Under the pieces are notes generated by a model. It was not told where the DNA came from and did not search any database. It saw nothing but the letters and a program-made list of their open reading frames with translations. From a virus, in the IMG/VR virus record IMGVR_UViG_3300045988_128238, positions 1-49,335 of that record: a stretch of 49,335 bases of DNA, one strand, 5' to 3'. Position numbers and translations under genes: made by a program. Below are positions 8,059 through 47,306 of this stretch, one piece after another (position 1 is the stretch's first letter; each line of letters starts with the position of its first letter).

Positions 8059-8628
8059 ATGCAAGCAAAAGATTTAAAAGTAGGAGATATCTTTCGTGTA
8101 GATGAGATTGGGTATACTAATGAACCTTTAGAATGTATTAACATTTATGACTACAGTGTAGACTATAAACCACTTAATACTAATAAAAAATTTAACTTAC
8201 CTAAAGGTAATAAAGTAGTTATCTTAGAACAAGAAGAAAAAATTTCTGATTCTGAGGTACATAACCCTAAACGCTACAATACTAACAATGTAGAATGTTG
8301 GGATTTCATTGCTAAGTATGACCTAGACTATTTTGTAGCTACAGCTATTAAGTATGTTTGGAGACATAAATATAAGGGTGGTAAGCAAGACCTAGAGAAA
8401 TCTTTAGAGTTTTTATATAAACGTATTAGTTTAAATAAAACTTTTGAAAGACCTAGTGAATTTACTTATGAAGTACCACAAGTAATTGACTATCAAGATA
8501 TGGATATTACACAAATGGTAATTCTATATTATGCTAGTCGTTTACATGTAGTGTCACCAGACGCTCAGAAACAGCTTGTAATCAAGATTAAGTCACTTGT
8601 GGAGGATTATATCAATGACTTCTATTAA
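8059..8628 (+). CDS. DUF3310-family protein with extra N-terminal domain
   Basis: NVECWDFI...ATAIKYVWRHKYKGGKQDLEKSLEFL matches the characteristic DUF3310 motif. Confidence 0.65.
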   Translation: MQAKDLKVGDIFRVDEIGYTNEPLECINIYDYSVDYKPLNTNKKFNLPKGNKVVILEQEEKISDSEVHNPKRYNTNNVECWDFIAKYDLDYFVATAIKYVWRHKYKGGKQDLEKSLEFLYKRISLNKTFERPSEFTYEVPQVIDYQDMDITQMVILYYASRLHVVSPDAQKQLVIKIKSLVEDYINDFY

Positions 8629-9334
8629 ATGGCATACAAAGGACGATAGACTGCTTCCTGAACGTGCTACAAAAAATTCTGTTGGTTATGACTTTGTATC
8701 TCCTGAGGATTTCGAAATTAAACCAGGTGTGTCTATTGCTATTGATTCAGGTGTGTCATGTGAGTTTTCAGATGATTTATGGCTTGGTATCTATGGACGG
8801 TCTAGCTTTGTAAGAAAAGGTCTTATGAATCCACTTGGTGTAGGTATCATTGATGCTGACTATCATGCTACTGGTAATAACATTGGAATCATGCTTAAAA
8901 ATGTATCGGATGAACCTATTACTATTGCTAAAGGTGATGCTATTGCACAAGGTATTTTCCATAATGTTATTACTGCAGGTGATGAAGTAACTACAGAACG
9001 CACTGGTGGCTTTGGTTCAACTGATGTTAAGGATGAAGAATATCCACTTACTGTAGAAATTTATGGTAAGAAATATAAAGCTAAATATGCTAAAGATTTA
9101 TTCCATGGTTTATATGGTATCTTGGTGTATGCTGATGATAGTAATATTATATTTATTAGTAAAGAAGAGTATTTTGCTTTTCATAATGCTCAAGATTTCT
9201 TTAAAGATAGTTCAAATAAACAACTACAAAATCGTTGTTGGTATTTTGAACGTTATTTGTGGTCAATTAGAGATGCTACAAAAGAAGATTGTATAAATGA
9301 CTTTATTGAAAGCTTAATAGTTAAGGAAGGATAG
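8615..9334 (+). CDS. dut: Trimeric dUTPase with a C-terminal extension of about 95 aa
   Basis: GYDF, GRSS, GIIDADY and the motif V RTGGFGST. GGAGGA lies 8 nt before ATG 8615. Residues after about 143 have no dUTPase counterpart. Confidence 0.85.
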   Translation: MTSIKWHTKDDRLLPERATKNSVGYDFVSPEDFEIKPGVSIAIDSGVSCEFSDDLWLGIYGRSSFVRKGLMNPLGVGIIDADYHATGNNIGIMLKNVSDEPITIAKGDAIAQGIFHNVITAGDEVTTERTGGFGSTDVKDEEYPLTVEIYGKKYKAKYAKDLFHGLYGILVYADDSNIIFISKEEYFAFHNAQDFFKDSSNKQLQNRCWYFERYLWSIRDATKEDCINDFIESLIVKEG

Positions 9335-9344
9335 GGGTACTAAG

Positions 9345-12300
9345 ATGCCATTAGATAAAAAATTTAAGGATGTACTATCTCTAAACTTTGGTAAGGATGA
9401 TGAAATCCATGTAGGTCTCTTGGCATCAAGTGGGCAGTTTAACAGTGGTACTATTACTCTTGATGAAATTGATGAGTATATTGAAGAATACAAGGATGAT
9501 TACAATGTATTCATGTGTTATGCTCCTATTGATGGAGAGGATAGGCTATTAGAAAATGCTAAACCTACTAGATTCCTTGTAGCTGATATTGATGGTGCTG
9601 AAATTCCTAAAGAGTTTCCACCTAGCTACTATTGGGAAACAAGCCCTAATAAGTACCAAGGTCTTTGGATAAGTGATAAAGTCATTGCACCTAAAGACTA
9701 TGAGGTGTTAGCTCATGCTATGGTTAAAAAATTTAAGTTTGATTCTGCTAGTGATATTGTTCACTTGTATAGGATTCCAACTACAATTAACCATAAGTAT
9801 GCTACACCACAAGAGGTATCAGAACCTAAAGGTGAAGGTACTGTATATCGTAGACAAGATATTTTTGAAATTCTTGAATATGATAAATACAAAAAAGGTA
9901 CTAAAAAGAAAAAGGTCAAAAAGAAGAAGATTCCTAACAAGGACTATAACCTTGAAGAGCTTTATAAAAAGTACGAAGTAAAACCTCTAGTAGATAGAGA
10001 AATTACTGACAGGAGTGCTTATGTATATGCTATTGCTAAAGCTCTGTATGAACAAGGTGCTAAGTCTTCTGAAGTCAAGTTTGTAGTTATGTCTACAGAC
10101 CAAGACAAGTGGGATAGAGATGAAATTGACAAGGTTCTATTAAGAATTAAGTCAAAGACTAAACGTAGAAAGAAACTTAGTAGTTCAGTTAATATTTCTG
10201 AAGATGAAGTACATATTATTGGTATCAATGATGTTAAAGAAGGTGAGCATGGTGAAGAATGGCTCATTGAAGGTCTTTGGGAATATGACTCAGTAGGGTT
10301 GATTGTAGCACCTCCTAAGAGCTACAAGTCAACTCTAATTACTAACATGGCTGTAGCTGTAGCTAGTGGTAAACCATTTGATGGTCGTAAGGTTATTCAA
10401 GGTGGTGTACTTATCTTGCAAGGTGAAAATAGTCTAGTAGCTGAAAAATCAAGATTGATGAACATTGCAGGAACTACAGATTTACCTATCTACTATGTTC
10501 AGTCAAGCATTAATCTTGATAATATTGAAGTTCTTAAACGAACTATCATTGAGAACAGTATCAAGATGCTTGTTATTGACCCTCTTTATCTCTTGTTTGG
10601 TAGTGGTAATATGAACCATCAAGTAGATGTTACACCTAAACTAAGAACTCTTAGTGAGCTTAGAAGAGAAACTGGATGTAGTATTATTCTTGTTCATCAC
10701 ACAAGAAAAACAGATGGTTCATCAGAATTATCTACAAGTGATATTAATGGTTCAGGATTCTTTGAAGGATGGTATGAGTCTTTAATTATGCTACAACCTC
10801 CTAGAAGAACTGTAGTACGAAAGGTTAAGATGTTTAATCGTTTCCGTAATCATATTGGCTCTGAAGGTACTATTAGAATTGATGATAACCTTAAAATGAC
10901 TCTAAACCTTGATGATGATTTTGGTAATGAATTTACTGAAGATAAACCTGATAAGCCTATTAATACTCGTAAAGAGAGATTGAAAAAGAAAAAAGCTAAG
11001 AAAGCTAAAAAGAAAGAGTCTGTAGTTGAAGTTGTGGAGGAAGAAACAAAGCCAAAAAAGCAGAAGGCTCTCAGAAGCTCTGAGAAGCGTTCTAAGCGTG
11101 TTAAACAGCCTACCTATACAACAACCCTAGAAACGTTTTACAAGCCATCAGAAGGCGAATTAGAGCGTTTTGAGAGTGGTATGACGATTGACCTTAGTAA
11201 TACTAAGAAAATCTATGTTGATATTGAAACTACAGGTCTCAATAATATCACTGATGAAATCAAGACAATTCAAATTACAGATGAGAGTGAAAACACTTAT
11301 GTACTTTGGGTTGATGGTAACTATGAAGAACTAGAATCTATTGCTAAGTTCTTGAATCAGTTTAAAATTATTACTCATGGTGGTAAGTTTGATAGTCTAT
11401 TCTTCTACAGAAAGTGTGGACTAGAGCTTAAACTCTTTGGTGATACTCAAATTCTTGCTCACATGCTTACAGAACCTAAACTTAAACTTAAGTACCTTGT
11501 CAAGAAATACCTTGGTATTGACTATGATATTGATAAGGAAACTAAGAAGTCTAATAAAAAGGTAACTGTAGCTAGTGTTAAGAAAGAACTTAAAGAGTGG
11601 GCTTTAGAAAATACTGAGCTTAAGAAACTTACACCATATAACAAAATGATTGAAGCTCTATATAATGACTTGGAAGGTAGTCTATTCTTAGATAAACCAC
11701 AGATGCTTATTAAGTTTGTAGATGATGGTACTGATTATGGTAAGGTACTTGATTACTACTCTAAGGTGTCTGAGCGTGTCCTGGAAGAAAGAAGAATGAC
11801 TCTTATTAAGTATGGTATGGGGGATACTGTATATGGATTCAGACTCTATAATTACCTATATCCTAAAGTTAAAGCTTATAAGCTACTTAAGGTCTATAGA
11901 CATGAGGTAAGAGCTTATAATGCCTATATTGAGGTAGAAAAAGAAGGGGTTACAATAGACTTTGGTTTATTGGGAGAGACCAGAGCTACAATAGAGACTG
12001 AGCTTAAAGAAGTAGAAAAAGAACTTTACTCTTTTGATATTGTTAAAGAAGCTAAAGTAGACAACTTTAACTCAGCTCAACAAAAGGTAAGACTATTCTG
12101 TGAGGTGTTAGGTTGGGAGACTAAACACATGACTAAAGGTGGACAACCACAAGTCAATCAATCCCAGTTAGAGGAATGGTCAAAAGAAGGAAAACATGAA
12201 ATACTAGATGTTTTGCTTAGATATAATAAGCTTACTAAACAACTACAGTTTGTTGATAAGTGGGAAGAATTATCACAATATGATGGTAAGCTACATCCAA

Positions 12301-13145
12301 GTTTTAACATAACTGCTGATACTGGAAGGACTACTTGTAAGAATCCTAACATCCAACAAGTGCCCCAGGAGTCAACACTTAGGAATGTAATTACATGTCC
12401 TAAAGGTAGAAAATTCATTGAAGTGGACATGTCACAAGCTGAGTTGCGTGTAGCTAGTATATTCTCTGAAGATGAAAACATGATACATGCTTATCAGTCA
12501 GGAAGTGACTTGCACCAAAAGACAATGGAATTAATTAAAGGTGGTAAGAAACCTAAGAACGACCAGGAAGCTAAGAGATGGCGTACTGAAGCCAAGTCAG
12601 CAAACTTTGGTCTTTTATATGGTATGTCAGCTAAGACTTATCAAGAGTATGCTAAAGGATATGGTATGAATATTACCTTAGAAGAAGCTGAAGACATCCG
12701 TGATGATTTCTTTAATTCATATCCAAGGCTACTAGATATGCATAAGAAGTTTGTAGAATATGCTAAGAAGTATGGGTATACTTATAGCCCTATTGGTCGT
12801 AAGAGATTCTTACCTAACCTTAAGAGCAAGAATTGGAAAGATGTTAGTGAAGCTGAAAGACAAGCTATTAACACACCTGTCCAAGGATTTGCAAGTGATT
12901 TAGTAATTAGTGCTTTAGCAGATATTCTTGAAGATGATTCACTAGATAAATCTAAGTATAAGATTATTGGCTCAGTACATGATGCCATTCTAGTTGAAGC
13001 AGATGAAGATGTTGCTGAAGAATACGCTAAGAAAGTAAAAGAACACATGGAGAATCCTAGTGTACTTGAAATCTGTGATATTGAAATTACAGTACCTCTT
13101 GTAGCTGATATTGAAATTGGCTCAGCTTGGGGTAAACATGATTAA
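9345..13145 (+). CDS. Fusion replicase: RepB'/prim-pol-like primase + RecA-fold (AAA_25/RepA-like) helicase + 3'-5' exonuclease + family A DNA polymerase
   Basis: Primase: FLVADIDG, ETSPNKYQGLW, RIPTTINHK. Helicase: APPKSYKST, LVIDPLY, ILVHHTRK. Exonuclease: DIETTGL, HGGKFD, YGMGD. Polymerase: DMSQAELR, RTEAKSANFGLLYG, VHDA. One uninterrupted 1266-aa ORF. Confidence 0.85.
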   Translation: MPLDKKFKDVLSLNFGKDDEIHVGLLASSGQFNSGTITLDEIDEYIEEYKDDYNVFMCYAPIDGEDRLLENAKPTRFLVADIDGAEIPKEFPPSYYWETSPNKYQGLWISDKVIAPKDYEVLAHAMVKKFKFDSASDIVHLYRIPTTINHKYATPQEVSEPKGEGTVYRRQDIFEILEYDKYKKGTKKKKVKKKKIPNKDYNLEELYKKYEVKPLVDREITDRSAYVYAIAKALYEQGAKSSEVKFVVMSTDQDKWDRDEIDKVLLRIKSKTKRRKKLSSSVNISEDEVHIIGINDVKEGEHGEEWLIEGLWEYDSVGLIVAPPKSYKSTLITNMAVAVASGKPFDGRKVIQGGVLILQGENSLVAEKSRLMNIAGTTDLPIYYVQSSINLDNIEVLKRTIIENSIKMLVIDPLYLLFGSGNMNHQVDVTPKLRTLSELRRETGCSIILVHHTRKTDGSSELSTSDINGSGFFEGWYESLIMLQPPRRTVVRKVKMFNRFRNHIGSEGTIRIDDNLKMTLNLDDDFGNEFTEDKPDKPINTRKERLKKKKAKKAKKKESVVEVVEEETKPKKQKALRSSEKRSKRVKQPTYTTTLETFYKPSEGELERFESGMTIDLSNTKKIYVDIETTGLNNITDEIKTIQITDESENTYVLWVDGNYEELESIAKFLNQFKIITHGGKFDSLFFYRKCGLELKLFGDTQILAHMLTEPKLKLKYLVKKYLGIDYDIDKETKKSNKKVTVASVKKELKEWALENTELKKLTPYNKMIEALYNDLEGSLFLDKPQMLIKFVDDGTDYGKVLDYYSKVSERVLEERRMTLIKYGMGDTVYGFRLYNYLYPKVKAYKLLKVYRHEVRAYNAYIEVEKEGVTIDFGLLGETRATIETELKEVEKELYSFDIVKEAKVDNFNSAQQKVRLFCEVLGWETKHMTKGGQPQVNQSQLEEWSKEGKHEILDVLLRYNKLTKQLQFVDKWEELSQYDGKLHPSFNITADTGRTTCKNPNIQQVPQESTLRNVITCPKGRKFIEVDMSQAELRVASIFSEDENMIHAYQSGSDLHQKTMELIKGGKKPKNDQEAKRWRTEAKSANFGLLYGMSAKTYQEYAKGYGMNITLEEAEDIRDDFFNSYPRLLDMHKKFVEYAKKYGYTYSPIGRKRFLPNLKSKNWKDVSEAERQAINTPVQGFASDLVISALADILEDDSLDKSKYKIIGSVHDAILVEADEDVAEEYAKKVKEHMENPSVLEICDIEITVPLVADIEIGSAWGKHD

Positions 13146-16060: not shown

Positions 16061-18373
16061 TTACCCCTCGTTTGATACTTCCAAGTTACCTTTAATAGTA
16101 ACTTTACCAAGAGCATCTTGTACTGATGTAGCTTTAATCTTTTCAATAGCTTCTACCACTTTAGCATTTGCATCACTAATAGCTTGTTTAATCTCTTGTG
16201 CATCTCTTGATTGACTATCAATAAATCTACCAAAGTCAGCATCAGGAAGGTTAAGGTGTTTAGCTCCTGCATTTTGTAGTTGGAATACAGTTTCCATATC
16301 ACCAATACCGAATACTCTACCGTTAACTACAGCTACATAACCACTATCACCAGTTTGATTTCTTACTACAAAGTTCATATCTTCATCCTCTTCTTCAATA
16401 CTAGATGATGTTACTTCATCATCAATCAATACAATGTTTTTATCTAGTCCACCTGCAATACCAGTAGAAGTAAACTGCCACCATCTCATGTGTTCCATAT
16501 CAGGATATACACCCCAGTAAGGAGTAGGTGTTACTTCATAGTTAGGATATCCTGCAATCCATAGACTATTAGGATACTTAGCAGTAACTTGGTCAATATA
16601 GACATTTGCTAGTGTATAAGGCTTGTAGCTATAGTAAATAGGTTCAAAGCCTGCTTGTTTACACTTATCCATAAAGGCAATTACAGCATCAGTGTTAGCT
16701 TGTACATTACCACTAGCACTATCTTCATAGTCACATACTAAGTATCTAGGCTTACTTGGTAGATTGTTAATAAAGAAGTCAGCTTCAGCTTGTGCTAAAC
16801 CTACATCTCCACCGAATCTAGCAAAGTGATAATAACCTACACAATTACTTGTATTAGTTTGTTGTGTAGCTACAGGACTTAACCATCCAACACCCTCAGA
16901 TACCTTAATAATAGTATTTCTAGTACCACTAGCATTACAAATATCTGTTAGGTCTCCTGGTTGGTATGCAGATACATCAATGAAGTAATCATCTTTTTTA
17001 AGACCACTAGCTACAGAAGATGGTTCTGAGCTGTTAGTGACTACTGCAGTATTGTTAGCTGATTTAGGTCTAAAGGCAGTAGCAAATGTAGCTGAGTAAG
17101 GAAGAGCTACAATGTTGAATACTCCACCACCATTAGTATTCTTTTGTTCTCCACCTTGGTTTTGACCTAGAAAGTTACCGTATCCATTACCTGCATCACT
17201 GTCAAAGATAGCTACATGTGAATAAGGTGTTGAAGGTGTAACATCAAAGATAGCTACATCTCCTGCTTGCATTACTTCAACTTCATCAAAGTAGTTAAGA
17301 ATACCATTGCTATGTCTTTGAGTCCATAGGTCTTGTGCATAACCACTGTCAGTACAGTTGATTATAGGATAACCAAGATATTTACAGTATTCTGCAAAAC
17401 CATCCCAACAATTATGATGAAGTTGATTATCAGCATAGTAACTGTGGTCTCCATCAGTATTTAGAACATAAATAGTATCTTCACCAATTTCTTCTAGAGA
17501 AATAAAGTTATTAATTAAGTTCCTCTTTTTATTTACTGATAGTTTCCATATTGGTTTAGGATTGTCTGTAAAGTTTGTAGCTTCTCTATCGTGTCTCTTA
17601 CTAAGGCAAGCAGAAATACCGTTAATATGACATCCATGTTGTAAAGTAACAAGTAATTGTTTATTTACTGAGTAACCTACAGTGGTATTAGAACCCTTCT
17701 TATCGTGTCCATCTGCCTTAAGGTAACCTTCAATGATAAGTAAATACTGTTCCTTAGTGAATACATCTGTAAGTTCTTTATTACTAAAGTCTTGGATAAC
17801 TTTAAGTAATTCAGGATGGAATCTTACCTGTAGGTTTACAATATCTGCCTTACCATTTGAGTGTTTATGTGAGGTACAATTTACATTTAAGTTTTCTAAG
17901 TAACCTAGTTTATCATCAGTACCTACAGTGATGAATACTGTTGATGTTTTTGAGTTTTTCCATCTTTTTCTTACACTACCATCACCCAACCAGAAACCAA
18001 AGAATCTAAGTTCATCATCTGTAAGGTCATATACCTTATCTGATTCACTAAGGTCTAAGGCAATACTATCACCTTGCTTAAGCTCAGTAACAGGTTTATA
18101 AGTACCGTCCTTAAGGAATACCTTATGGTCTTTAGTTACTTTAAACCAACCCTGAGAAGTGTTTAACCAGTACACTGTAGATTGTTTAGGCTCATTACTA
18201 ACTACAGTGTTTCCTGTGGAAAGTACATCACCTTCAACAATATCTTTTACTAGCTTATAACTACCATCCTTTAGCTTTACAAGATATTCTCCTGTAAGAC
18301 ATTGGTCTCCGAACCAACCATCAAGGTCATAACCATTACCAAGGTGAGTATTTTTAAAGTCTTGATAACTCAT
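16061..18373 (-). CDS. Endolysin: intein-interrupted CHAP + GH25 muramidase + C-terminal wall-binding domain
   Basis: CHAP: GYDLDGWFGDQ[intein]CWDGFAEYCKYLG ... SHVAIF. GH25: IDVSAYQ, IIKVSEG, GYYHFARF, LVCDYED. Confidence 0.85.
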   Translation of the reverse strand: MSYQDFKNTHLGNGYDLDGWFGDQCLTGEYLVKLKDGSYKLVKDIVEGDVLSTGNTVVSNEPKQSTVYWLNTSQGWFKVTKDHKVFLKDGTYKPVTELKQGDSIALDLSESDKVYDLTDDELRFFGFWLGDGSVRKRWKNSKTSTVFITVGTDDKLGYLENLNVNCTSHKHSNGKADIVNLQVRFHPELLKVIQDFSNKELTDVFTKEQYLLIIEGYLKADGHDKKGSNTTVGYSVNKQLLVTLQHGCHINGISACLSKRHDREATNFTDNPKPIWKLSVNKKRNLINNFISLEEIGEDTIYVLNTDGDHSYYADNQLHHNCWDGFAEYCKYLGYPIINCTDSGYAQDLWTQRHSNGILNYFDEVEVMQAGDVAIFDVTPSTPYSHVAIFDSDAGNGYGNFLGQNQGGEQKNTNGGGVFNIVALPYSATFATAFRPKSANNTAVVTNSSEPSSVASGLKKDDYFIDVSAYQPGDLTDICNASGTRNTIIKVSEGVGWLSPVATQQTNTSNCVGYYHFARFGGDVGLAQAEADFFINNLPSKPRYLVCDYEDSASGNVQANTDAVIAFMDKCKQAGFEPIYYSYKPYTLANVYIDQVTAKYPNSLWIAGYPNYEVTPTPYWGVYPDMEHMRWWQFTSTGIAGGLDKNIVLIDDEVTSSSIEEEDEDMNFVVRNQTGDSGYVAVVNGRVFGIGDMETVFQLQNAGAKHLNLPDADFGRFIDSQSRDAQEIKQAISDANAKVVEAIEKIKATSVQDALGKVTIKGNLEVSNEG
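17411..18301 (-). mobile_element. Class 1 intein (297 aa) with LAGLIDADG homing endonuclease
   Basis: Cys1 (CLTGEYLV), block B TKDH, LAGLIDADG motifs FFGFWLGDGS and IIEGYLKADG, C-terminal LHHN followed by +1 Cys. Confidence 0.85.
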
Positions 18374-44817: not shown

Positions 44818-46418
44818 TAATTACCTCCTTCTACACCAAGTATATATAGTTCTAAAGCATGAACAGCTAGAATAACAGCATCTAGGTCGTCAGGAGACCT
44901 CTTCAGTACTTGTCTAATGACATCTTTACCGATTAGGGTAACTTTATCAAGCTCTTTATTTTTGAGCTGTATAGCTCTCATTTGAGTCAATAGAGTTTCC
45001 TTAATTTCAGAAGCAAACACAACTTTATTCTCTTGCATAAGCTGTCTTAGGACTAAGTGCATCTCTGCTCTTCTATTTCTAGCCATTAAAGCAGTATCTA
45101 CATGACTTGCTACCTTCTCAGGTGTAGGTCTTCCACCAAAATCAATAGGATATATGGTAACCCTATCAAATGTAGGTCTATTCATCATCTCTACAATCAA
45201 GTGAGAACCTTGACCTGTATCAATAGCAAGTGATACTACATTGTACTTCATAACTACTTGCTCTATACCGTCTACAATTTCTCTTGTAGACCTTGCATCA
45301 GACCATTCATCAGGTCTTAAGTTGATGGTATCTGTTACCCTTACAAGGGCATCCTTATCAGTGTCATACATAGATAAAGCAAGTGTAATACCATCTGAAC
45401 CTTTATAGGCTGAGTCAATTCCTAGAGCTGATATAGTGCGTGGTGAGATACTACTAATATCATGTCTAGGAGCTACAATCATTGGAGCATTGAAGAACTC
45501 TGAGCTATTTTCATCATACTCACAAAGCAAGTTGATTCTTATAGACTCTTCAGTTCTAGCAAAGTCAGAAGCTAACACCTCTTCAGGAGTCATTTTAATT
45601 GAGTCTGATTCCATTGAAGTAACTATGTTACCCCATATAACAAACTCATCATCCTTCAGATTAGGGTTAGTAACAGATTCATGGAAGTGATTTAAGAAAC
45701 GAGGGTTACTAATACCAAAAAGGATAAGTGATTCTCCATCATCTCTTTCAAACTCACGTCTACCAAGCTCTGTCAAGGCACGTTCTGAGATAAAGTCCAT
45801 TTCATCAATAAGAACATGAGAACCTTCACCAATGTTTTCATCTGAGTCCATACTAGAGAAGGTATCACCTGTAGATTTAGTATCAATCTTGTTACCATTC
45901 TTAAAGACAATCCTAGACTTACTATAAGCTGTCTCAGACCGTCCTAGGAGCTTGTCAGCCTTGCTTATGGAAGCCTTGGACTCTTCTACCAACATGTTCT
46001 TCATGTCGATACTAGCCCCTCTTAGATGCCTTCTAGCGTGTTCCATAACCTTAGCTGTTCTTGATGATTTAGATGCAACTACAGATACACTGTAGCTGTG
46101 CATTGCTAAATAGTTAGCTAAAGCTCCCATGATAAATGATTTACCAAACCTTGGAGGTTCAATCATGTAACCAGTATGATAGTCACCAGATATTAAAGCT
46201 CCAATAGCTAAAGCTTGGTCAAAGTTGAGTTCTATATTCATTTCAGCTAAGAACTCTGTATAACCTAGTTTAGCATAATGTAATCTTTTCTCAATAGGTA
46301 TTGAGTTTCTGATGTAAGAGTCAGGATGTGGTATATACCCCTTTAACCAAGGTAATAACTCACTTTTAGGATGGACTTCACCAAGTTTTAGTACAAGTCT
46401 ATCCCTCAGTTTCCCCAT
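44817..46418 (-). CDS. terL: Terminase large subunit
   Basis: Walker A PPRFGKS, Walker B VLIDEMDF, and the nuclease-half segment LGIDSAYKGSDG. Confidence 0.85.
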   Translation of the reverse strand: MGKLRDRLVLKLGEVHPKSELLPWLKGYIPHPDSYIRNSIPIEKRLHYAKLGYTEFLAEMNIELNFDQALAIGALISGDYHTGYMIEPPRFGKSFIMGALANYLAMHSYSVSVVASKSSRTAKVMEHARRHLRGASIDMKNMLVEESKASISKADKLLGRSETAYSKSRIVFKNGNKIDTKSTGDTFSSMDSDENIGEGSHVLIDEMDFISERALTELGRREFERDDGESLILFGISNPRFLNHFHESVTNPNLKDDEFVIWGNIVTSMESDSIKMTPEEVLASDFARTEESIRINLLCEYDENSSEFFNAPMIVAPRHDISSISPRTISALGIDSAYKGSDGITLALSMYDTDKDALVRVTDTINLRPDEWSDARSTREIVDGIEQVVMKYNVVSLAIDTGQGSHLIVEMMNRPTFDRVTIYPIDFGGRPTPEKVASHVDTALMARNRRAEMHLVLRQLMQENKVVFASEIKETLLTQMRAIQLKNKELDKVTLIGKDVIRQVLKRSPDDLDAVILAVHALELYILGVEGGN

Positions 46419-46971
46419 CTGTACCCTCTTCTAGTCTTAATACCTCATCATGTTCTAGTTCTTTCTGTTCTTCTTTGGAATCTTTACCATAATCTTTCCA
46501 AATATTACCTAGTTCATCAAACTTATCTAGGATAAGCTCCCTTGTAGCTGATGCAGTATTATCACTATCATCAGAAACTAGAGCCATAGATACTTCCCTA
46601 GATACTGCTTTACCTTCAACCCTATCAGCCCATTCTTTACGTTCATCTGAACTAATCATAGATAGTTTAGTTTGAACTAAAGCATTAACCCTTGTAGCTG
46701 TAGGTACTGGAATATTTTCTACAAATTCTACATCTAGTTTTTTGACTTTACTAACTACAAGAGGTGCAATACCCCAAAACATCTCTACTACCTCTAACTG
46801 GTCTAAAGACATTTCAGATAAAGCTCTCATTTCAGTAGAATAGGCTCTATTTTTCTTTTTTGATTTTGGTAGGTCTGAGTGTCCATACCAATATTTAGGA
46901 AAGGGAATACCTCTACTAAGAAAGTAGTCTCTATCCTTACCTTCAATAGCTAATTTAATTTCATCTTTCAT
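46399..46971 (-). CDS. terS: Terminase small subunit (putative)
   Basis: Position upstream of and overlapping terL. 190 aa. Confidence 0.55.
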   Translation of the reverse strand: MKDEIKLAIEGKDRDYFLSRGIPFPKYWYGHSDLPKSKKKNRAYSTEMRALSEMSLDQLEVVEMFWGIAPLVVSKVKKLDVEFVENIPVPTATRVNALVQTKLSMISSDERKEWADRVEGKAVSREVSMALVSDDSDNTASATRELILDKFDELGNIWKDYGKDSKEEQKELEHDEVLRLEEGTDGETEG

Positions 46972-47000: not shown

Positions 47001-47072
47001 TAGTTCCACCAGGAATCGAACCTGGAGTAGAGGTTTAGAAGACCTCTGTGTTATCCGTTACACCATAGAACC
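47001..47072 (-). tRNA. tRNA-Arg (anticodon UCU)
   Basis: Hand-folded cloverleaf: acceptor GGUUCUA/UGGAACU, anticodon stem GAGGU/ACCUC with loop CUUCUAA, T arm CCAGG-UUCGAUU-CCUGG. No encoded CCA. Confidence 0.85.

Positions 47073-47235: not shown

Positions 47236-47306
<71 letters not shown>

Follow-up and report, generated by a model that had tools for sequence, protein, structure and literature searches.

A predicted primase-helicase-exonuclease-polymerase fusion encoded by a single open reading frame of an uncultured tailed phage

PREX, the sole replicase of the small apicoplast genome, carries a primase, a hexameric-type RecA-fold helicase, a 3'-5' exonuclease and a family A DNA polymerase, in this order from the N- to the C-terminus (PMC9631997, PMC10201439). 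Here we describe a single open reading frame (ORF) with the same layout in 49,335 nucleotides (nt) of viral DNA, positions 1 to 49,335 of IMG/VR record IMGVR_UViG_3300045988_128238; this whole stretch is referred to below as the window. PREX is eukaryotic, nuclear-encoded and cleaved after import (PMC9631997), whereas the window protein comes from what looks like a tailed phage. The RSF1010 proteins RepB' (primase) and RepA (helicase), both homologous to the N-terminal half of the window protein, are separate and come without a polymerase. In T7, the same functional set in the same domain order is divided between two proteins, gp4 and gp5, with a TOPRIM primase and thioredoxin; the window protein instead has a covalent link and a predicted archaeo-eukaryotic primase (AEP).

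In phages, fusion of RepA-like superfamily 4 (SF4) helicases to AEPs is frequent; corynephage BFK20 gp43 is one example (Kazlauskas 2016, PMC4889955). Proteins of the gp43 type, and those of PHROG 3123, share the AEP and the RepA-like helicase with the N-terminal half of the window protein but lack a polymerase. Other PolA fusions are also on record. Czernecki et al. 2023 (PMC10201439) list an AEP prim-pol joined to a 'cluster 8' PolA in some bacteria and a helicase-PolA polyprotein in hot-spring phages, as well as superfamily 2 (SF2) helicase-Pol theta and uracil-DNA glycosylase (UDG)-PolA fusions. Like the window protein, the cluster 8 proteins are encoded in prokaryotic or viral genomes and have a primase or helicase on the N-terminal side of a PolA that is exonuclease-proficient (PMC10201439). 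They are set apart by a probably different PolA subfamily (Aquificae-like/apicoplast) and, by their description, by carrying an AEP or a helicase, not the AEP and RepA-like pair. A first-pass annotation of the window had named PREX as the only well-known precedent; these PolA fusions, and the fact that the AEP-helicase half is a known phage type, contradict that view. Our literature search returned no description of this phage protein, or of a RepB'-like AEP, RepA-like helicase, exonuclease and PolA combined in a tailed phage of a Gram-positive host. Each half belongs to known families. Because all modules and the primase-helicase half fall in described families and other PolA fusions have been published, we regard the protein as an extension of known designs and not as a new principle.

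The ORF begins with ATG and continues through 1266 codons with zero internal stops, encoding a protein of ~146 kDa.

9345..13145, + strand: primase-helicase-exonuclease-polymerase fusion in one ORF of 1266 amino acids (aa) (ORF list; full-length homologues at 92-97%, 75% and 68% identity)

The first-pass annotation had proposed one uninterrupted ORF with four modules, quoting 12 short motifs and a Lys-rich linker. The ORF list bears out the first point, and the four assignments are upheld by Pfam, PHROG, PDB profile, Foldseek and Taq alignment evidence. All 12 motif strings lie in the regions given for them, and the linker reaches 28% Lys at aa 530-600 against 11.6% in the whole protein. Domain mapping by profile search, which had been proposed as a check, supported the primase and helicase assignments. 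Pfam matches to DNA_pol_A, DNA_pol_A_exo1 and AAA_25 score above the curated cut-offs. In PHROGs, phrog_17 (DNA polymerase) matches aa 525-1264, and one family of 'unknown function', phrog_3123, spans aa 41-489, that is, primase and helicase together. A scan of 40 other window ORFs of at least 100 aa revealed no further primase, helicase or polymerase, in agreement with the earlier statement that the genome has no separate gene for these functions.

We consider it likely that in this ORF two neighboring replication genes of an uncultured tailed phage have truly been fused, and that selection maintains the fusion. The full-length ORF occurs in ~76 protein clusters at 92-97% identity, mostly on ~49-kb contigs from several data sources, and it is intact at the DNA level in >25 independent assemblies (ENA, JGI, Logan). 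All 29 distinct linker DNA sequences are open in frame, except those of two split relatives, L003 and L004. The fused lineages comprise the window clade, L012 (75% identity), L013/L014 (68%) and L002 (67%). Catalytic residues are invariant down to 29% identity in the primase-helicase and down to 68% identity across the whole protein.

In the split relatives L004 and L003, the primase-helicase is 76-77% identical to that of the window and syntenic with it, and the two halves are adjacent, overlapping genes. The TGA stop of the 578-aa primase-helicase of L004 overlaps the TTG start of a 701-aa exonuclease-polymerase (TTGA, L004:7491-7494), and in L003 the gene for a 562-aa primase-helicase shares 23 nt with a polymerase gene that starts with GTG. 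Since the halves are adjacent and overlapping in such close relatives, the window protein arose by read-through fusion of neighboring genes and was not independently assembled. In neighbor-joining trees of either half, split L004 is basal and split L003 is nested among the fused forms, which implies at least two changes of state or, alternatively, an indel error in L003. The fusion is evolutionarily shallow, with a labile join within the charged linker.

In more distant phages, both proteins have genes of their own, with 0.6-4.6 kb between them; examples are ~60-kb contigs that bear the annotations Lactococcus phage KSY1 gp088-like and Clostridium phage CPD4. Of 80 IMG/VR loci encoding a primase-helicase relative, only the six window-clade contigs showed the fused arrangement (five intact, and L046 with an in-frame stop). 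The database search for this architecture that the first-pass annotation had recommended was run on 1.84 billion representative proteins (query aa 45-1244), and among the best 150 matches only P0032 and P0080, both from this phage group, had the full architecture. The other long matches checked in this set were PolAs that either bear an intein or are fused to UDG, and fusions of independent origin in more distant groups may rank below 150. No match was obtained by megablast of the gene against 50,697 phage records, and tblastn against phage records gave none covering at least 80% of the protein, the best being a PolA-only match at ~26% identity. No cultured phage record had the fused gene. A separate observation concerns L001:514-2673 (P0083, 719 aa), which encodes a 47% identical primase-helicase with an unrelated C-terminal domain of ~200 aa and no polymerase. 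No PolA lies within 10 kb downstream of P0083, so the phages of this group may use another polymerase or that of the host.

The primase region of the window protein consists of three parts.

9345..9869, + strand: RepB'-like AEP primase catalytic domain, aa 1-175 (15-sequence alignment, PDB profile, Foldseek), with motif I D81-x-D83 (DIDG, aa 81-84), motif II S100...Q105 (ETSPNKYQGLW, aa 98-108), motif III D133/D137 and motif IV R143 (in RIPTTINHK, aa 143-151)
9891..9932, + strand: Lys-rich tether within the primase region, aa 183-196, YKKGTKKKKVKKKK (predicted local distance difference test, pLDDT, <50 at aa 186-192)
9942..10160, + strand: primase helical-bundle domain, aa 200-272 (model helices at 203-271)

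We aligned the N-terminal 560 residues with 14 homologues (15 sequences, identity down to 29%). Invariant residues in this alignment are D81, D83, S100, P101, Q105, D133, D137, R143, P145, N149, K151 and Y152, which include the acidic DxD pair of AEP motif I (D81 and D83), the motif II Gln (Q105) and the motif IV Arg (R143). RepB'-like enzymes are marked by Gln, not His, in motif II and by a conserved Arg in motif IV (Kazlauskas 2018, PMC5862659). The N-terminal invariant residues fit this AEP pattern and thus point to the RepB'-like form. A profile of the alignment matched RSF1010 RepB' (3h20) in the PDB at E 2.7e-6. An AlphaFold model was built from the same alignment (mean pLDDT 67.5, moderate confidence), and Foldseek of this model against the PDB recovered a RepB'-like fold of catalytic core plus helical bundle, with 3h20 at E 7.6e-10, 274 aligned columns and a target-normalised TM-score (TMt) of 0.43. 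The aligned columns exceed the catalytic core alone. The Lys-rich tether separates the catalytic core from the helical bundle, and RepB' is likewise built of two domains. The window protein has zero matches to TOPRIM or DnaG in Pfam, PHROGs and NCBIfam, and it differs in this from PREX, whose primase is of the TOPRIM (T7 gp4/Twinkle-like) type. Sequence and model together confirm the N-terminal module as a RepB'-like AEP primase, for which priming activity is predicted.

The primase is followed by a helicase module.

10248..10904, + strand: RecA-fold SF4-type (RepA/DnaB-like) helicase, aa 302-520 (Pfam AAA_25, PDB profile, Foldseek), with Walker A K325...K328-S329-T330 (PPKSYKST, aa 323-330), Walker B D412 (LVIDPLY, aa 409-415) and conserved H451/H452/K455 (LVHHTRK, aa 449-455)

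Pfam AAA_25 matches aa 302-457 at E 2.9e-28, and the Walker residues K325, K328, S329, T330 and D412 are invariant in the 15-sequence alignment. In the PDB profile search this part matched the Twinkle helicase domain (E 1.6e-6), RSF1010 RepA 1g8y (9e-4) and DnaB (0.035), and Foldseek returned DnaB 2q6t (E 1.9e-10) and RepA 1g8y/1nlf (TMt 0.60-0.63). RAD51, RadA and KaiC reach similar Foldseek scores, so the fold alone indicates a RecA-type ring ATPase and is insufficient for helicase function. We read the module as a helicase because of its sequence homology to RepA, DnaB and Twinkle and its fusion to a primase. RepA-like and DnaB/Twinkle-like helicases are grouped together here as SF4 RecA-fold rings, and the window helicase is presumably hexameric. 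The first-pass annotation had stated that PREX uses different primase and helicase families and that, if its view of PREX was right, the shared architecture arose by convergence. This stands for the primase, which is an AEP and not a TOPRIM enzyme, but not for the helicase, given its profile match to Twinkle; convergence may accordingly be claimed for the overall architecture and the primase, not for every module. One relative at 95% identity, L007/L046 (IMGVR_UViG_3300034069_000321), has an in-frame stop at codon 309, at the start of the helicase domain (…GEEWLI*GLWEY…), and is either a defective variant or the product of a sequencing error.

The C-terminal half holds the remaining two modules.

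11190..11834, + strand: DEDDy 3'-5' proofreading exonuclease, aa 616-830 (Pfam DNA_pol_A_exo1, motifs), with Exo I D626/E628 (DIETTGL, aa 626-632), Exo II D683 (HGGKFD, aa 678-683) and Exo III Y823/D827 (YGMGD, aa 823-827)
11970..13133, + strand: family A DNA polymerase domain, aa 876-1263 (Pfam DNA_pol_A, PDB matches), with motif A D1028 (DMSQAELR, aa 1028-1035), motif B R1080/K1084/F1088/Y1092 (RTEAKSANFGLLYG, aa 1080-1093) and motif C H1212-D1213-A1214 (VHDA, aa 1211-1214)

Pfam DNA_pol_A_exo1 matches aa 616-739 (E 3.6e-18). The DEDDy residues D626, E628, D683, Y823 and D827 are all invariant in an alignment of seven fused homologues, and since the carboxylates and Y823 are all kept, proofreading is probably active. 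Pfam DNA_pol_A matches aa 876-1263 (E 1.4e-76). Matches in the PDB included Taq (1.8e-46, or 5.8e-47 using the C-terminal half alone), Klenow (~1e-43) and apPol/PREX chains (~1e-31), so that the window polymerase matches Taq and Klenow more strongly than apPol. All three family A motifs align with Taq: VDMSQAELRV with LDYSQIELRV (motif A), RTEAKSANFGLLYG with RRAAKTINFGVLYG (motif B) and SVHDAILVEA with QVHDELVLEA (motif C). Both catalytic Asp residues, D1028 and D1213, are aligned.

Mobile elements interrupt the polymerase part in several relatives. L008, L024, L025 and P0064/P0076 carry a 320-aa intein in polymerase motif B, which is absent from the window. It starts with CFTGDTEI, contains a LAGLIDADG_3 domain (E 9e-6) and ends with ...IQGN followed by Cys; its site corresponds to window aa 1085/1086 (nt ~12599-12600), and the resulting ORF is stop-free over 1586-1588 aa. 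A group I intron (Rfam RF00028, 61.8 bits) lies within an insertion of ~1036 nt at L027:4502-4778 and also in L028, L029 and L031. These relatives are 94-96% identical and have the polymerase part interrupted, and the window is intron-free. The insertion site corresponds to window aa ~1003, after CKNPNI (nt ~12353) and just ahead of the QQVPQ motif. L002 has an interruption with a LAGLIDADG_2 ORF at this intron site, which is probably also interrupted in L003.

The two halves of the window protein are joined by a charged linker.

10905..11144, + strand: charged linker, aa 521-600 (charge profile, pLDDT, comparison with the L003/L004 junctions)

The linker is basic at aa 544-557 (net +9), acidic at 558-567 (net -5) and basic again at 568-590 (net +9), and it is predicted to be disordered (pLDDT <50 at aa 524-542). 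In the split relatives, its counterparts are the C-terminal tail encoded by the helicase gene and the N-terminal tail encoded by the polymerase gene, taken together. In L004, the helicase tail is acidic (…ESETSGDDEGDSES) and the polymerase begins with basic residues (MKHNVKSKTSKKRFK; MKHNVKSKTSKKRFKTPK…). The acidic C-terminal tail of T7 gp4 contacts gp5, and the acidic helicase tail of L004 facing a basic polymerase N-terminus is reminiscent of this contact. By this analogy, the two tails may already have been in electrostatic contact when split, and the fusion would have made the contact covalent. We also inspected the linker for an internal start that could yield a separate polymerase. It contains few in-frame TTG/GTG codons, none with a convincing Shine-Dalgarno (SD) sequence, and a GGAGG at 11036-11040 has no suitably spaced start codon downstream, so that an internal start lacks support.

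Our preferred explanation is that the upstream ancestor was a BFK20-gp43-type primase-helicase gene (RepB'-like AEP core plus helical bundle, RepA/DnaB-like helicase) and the downstream ancestor a gene for a proofreading family A polymerase. Their stop/start overlap would have been lost within the charged, disordered tail region, turning the basic/acidic C-terminal tail of the helicase and the basic N-terminal tail of the polymerase into a covalent linker of ~80 residues. If the protein acts at full length, the helicase ring would translocate along the lagging-strand template and the N-terminal AEP domains would synthesize primers, while the tethered polymerase-exonuclease modules would extend the leading strand and take up primers. 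The coupling that T7 gp4-gp5 achieve non-covalently would in this case be hard-wired at 1:1 stoichiometry.

Several observations weigh against this explanation. The Pfam RepB_primase match of the window protein (aa 91-153) scores 22.9 bits and falls slightly short of the curated cut-off of 24.3; many relatives carry a precomputed PF16793 match. The AlphaFold model is of moderate confidence, as given above. Motif C (12975-12986, aa 1211-1214) reads VHDA where HDE is canonical, with Ala1214 invariant across the seven aligned fused homologues, so that full polymerase activity is assumed. The position of L003 implies fission or repeated fusion, and the fused state is therefore not obligatory. Finally, a hexamer with six polymerases would be sterically and stoichiometrically unusual, which suggests that the cell may also make or need a polymerase-free form.

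Two rival accounts deny either that the fused gene exists or that its product persists. An error of one base in an A-rich run, made during sequencing or assembly, could have merged two real genes, and there are indeed A-runs in the boundary region where L003 and L004 are split. The frame is nevertheless intact in >25 assemblies produced by different projects with different assemblers, and likewise in lineages of 67-75% identity that have linkers of other lengths and sequences. Because the fused ORF persists across these assemblies and diverged lineages, we regard such an artefact as excluded for practical purposes and its probability as negligible; an error, if any, is likelier in L003, a singleton split contig. 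Alternatively, the product could be a polyprotein cut in the Lys/Arg-rich linker to free primase-helicase and polymerase, as PREX is after apicoplast import. This is favored by a long, charged linker with predicted disorder, by the proteolytic maturation of PREX (PMC9631997) and by the split relatives, which work with two proteins. However, the only protease detectable in the window is that of head maturation, and the linker sequence differs among lineages, with no conserved cleavage motif. Maturation by cleavage seems very improbable to us.

A polymerase-free form could also come from programmed -1 frameshifting, for which the linker contains a candidate site.

11036..11040, + strand: GGAGG Shine-Dalgarno-like pentamer, 13 nt upstream of the heptamer (window's sub-clade only)
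11054..11060, + strand: candidate A AAA AAG slippery heptamer, Lys571-Lys572 (sole in-frame X XXY YYZ in the ORF)
11062..11093, inner stem 11067-11088, + strand: predicted RNA hairpin downstream of the heptamer (minimum free energy -16.4 kcal/mol)

A -1 shift at the heptamer would meet a TGA at 11081-11083, seven codons on, and give a 579-aa, acidic-tailed primase-helicase with the junction peptide ...KPKKAEGSQKL (...TKPKKAEGSQKL), alongside the full-length fusion. Mixed hexamers with fewer than six polymerases could then form. This would resemble E. coli dnaX tau/gamma in its in-frame A AAA AAG, upstream SD-like element and downstream hairpin, and in a truncated product without the C-terminal partner-binding part. 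The site is the only X XXY YYZ among the 1266 codons, whereas synonymous-codon shuffling predicts 10.0 (P ~0.0002 for one or fewer), and none occurs outside the linker, against 8.7 expected. It coincides with the stop/start position of L004, and the predicted product is comparable in length to the stand-alone proteins of the split relatives (578 and 562 aa). The heptamer sits at the same position in every window-clade linker (26 of the 29 distinct linkers), despite changes in the preceding codon (Pro, Val and Met-Pro contexts), and also in L012, which is 75% identical, and single heptamers occur in L013 and in L014. In the window clade and all three of these relatives, the -1 frame reaches a stop within 2-8 codons. 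The window hairpin begins 1-6 nt downstream of the heptamer and has a z of -2.72, with 1 of 200 shuffles folding equally well.

Against frameshifting, the linker is Lys-rich and the genome AT-rich, and we estimate the chance of such a heptamer there at ~0.2-0.5 per genome (the shuffle expectation of 0.6 A AAA AAG in the linker, scaled by a genome-wide depletion of ~0.39). X XXY YYZ is also depleted in the 39 other window genes (28 observed versus 72.7 expected under synonymous shuffling). Two of these other genes have an in-frame A AAA AAG, the 1663-aa tape-measure-like gene (codon 162) and ORF 46399-46971 (codon 37), and the count of bare heptamers across the window does not exceed chance (21 observed, 20.4 expected). 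L002 is fused without the heptamer. In contrast to dnaX, the SD-like element and the hairpin that might stimulate the shift lack conservation and are confined to the window's sub-clade. As a conserved stimulator the hairpin fails, since it lacks covariation, is weakened by uncompensated G>A changes in a sister sub-clade and is absent from L013 and L014. The converse, that split relatives make the fusion by a -1 shift, was rejected on inspection: the sole near-slippery G AAA AAG of L004 meets a -1 stop one codon on. Taken together, we regard frameshifting as doubtful, though more plausible than cleavage. If true, the phage would tune the number of polymerases per helicase ring, and fused and split relatives would be alternative answers to one stoichiometry problem.

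On the preferred reading of a genuine, maintained fusion, this protein would provide a natural replisome core, mesophilic and made of a single polypeptide, with primase, helicase, proofreading and polymerase functions. Its close two-protein relatives offer a ready comparison for the effect of covalent helicase-polymerase coupling on processivity, primer hand-off and stoichiometry. The enzyme could also be useful in isothermal DNA amplification. Moreover, read-through between neighboring phage genes would be an easy route to PREX-like architectures, a point relevant to the origin of PREX.

The window has the appearance of a tailed-phage genome that is complete or nearly so. Its structural arm encodes a large terminase, a portal, a prohead protease, a 1663-aa ORF of tape-measure size and position, tail lysins and an endolysin, and this long tail-tape-measure-sized gene is siphovirus-like. 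The endolysin (16061-18373, - strand) is unusually long at 770 aa, and its C-terminal two-thirds are ~60% identical to lysins of Streptococcus agalactiae and S. parasanguinis phages, which is the main clue to the host. Relatives carry lysis domains typical of Streptococcus (Phage_holin_Dp1, CW_7, ZoocinA_TRD and GBS_Bsp-like). Based on the endolysin similarity and these domains, the host is probably Streptococcus. No relatives were found encoded in GTDB-representative genomes, and no prophage or direct host assignment follows from them.

The fusion ORF lies in a + strand replication/recombination arm, together with genes for a PD-(D/E)XK exonuclease, a Sak4-like AAA_24 ATPase, a DUF3310 protein, a dUTPase, an HD protein and a RuvC-like resolvase. 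The dUTPase ORF (8597-9334, + strand, 245 aa, TTG start as listed) ends 10 nt ahead of the fusion ORF and has its dUTPase domain at aa 20-140, followed by a C-terminal extension of ~100 aa. The window also encodes tRNA-Arg(tct) and tRNA-Cys(gca) on the minus strand, at 47001-47072 and 47236-47306, respectively.

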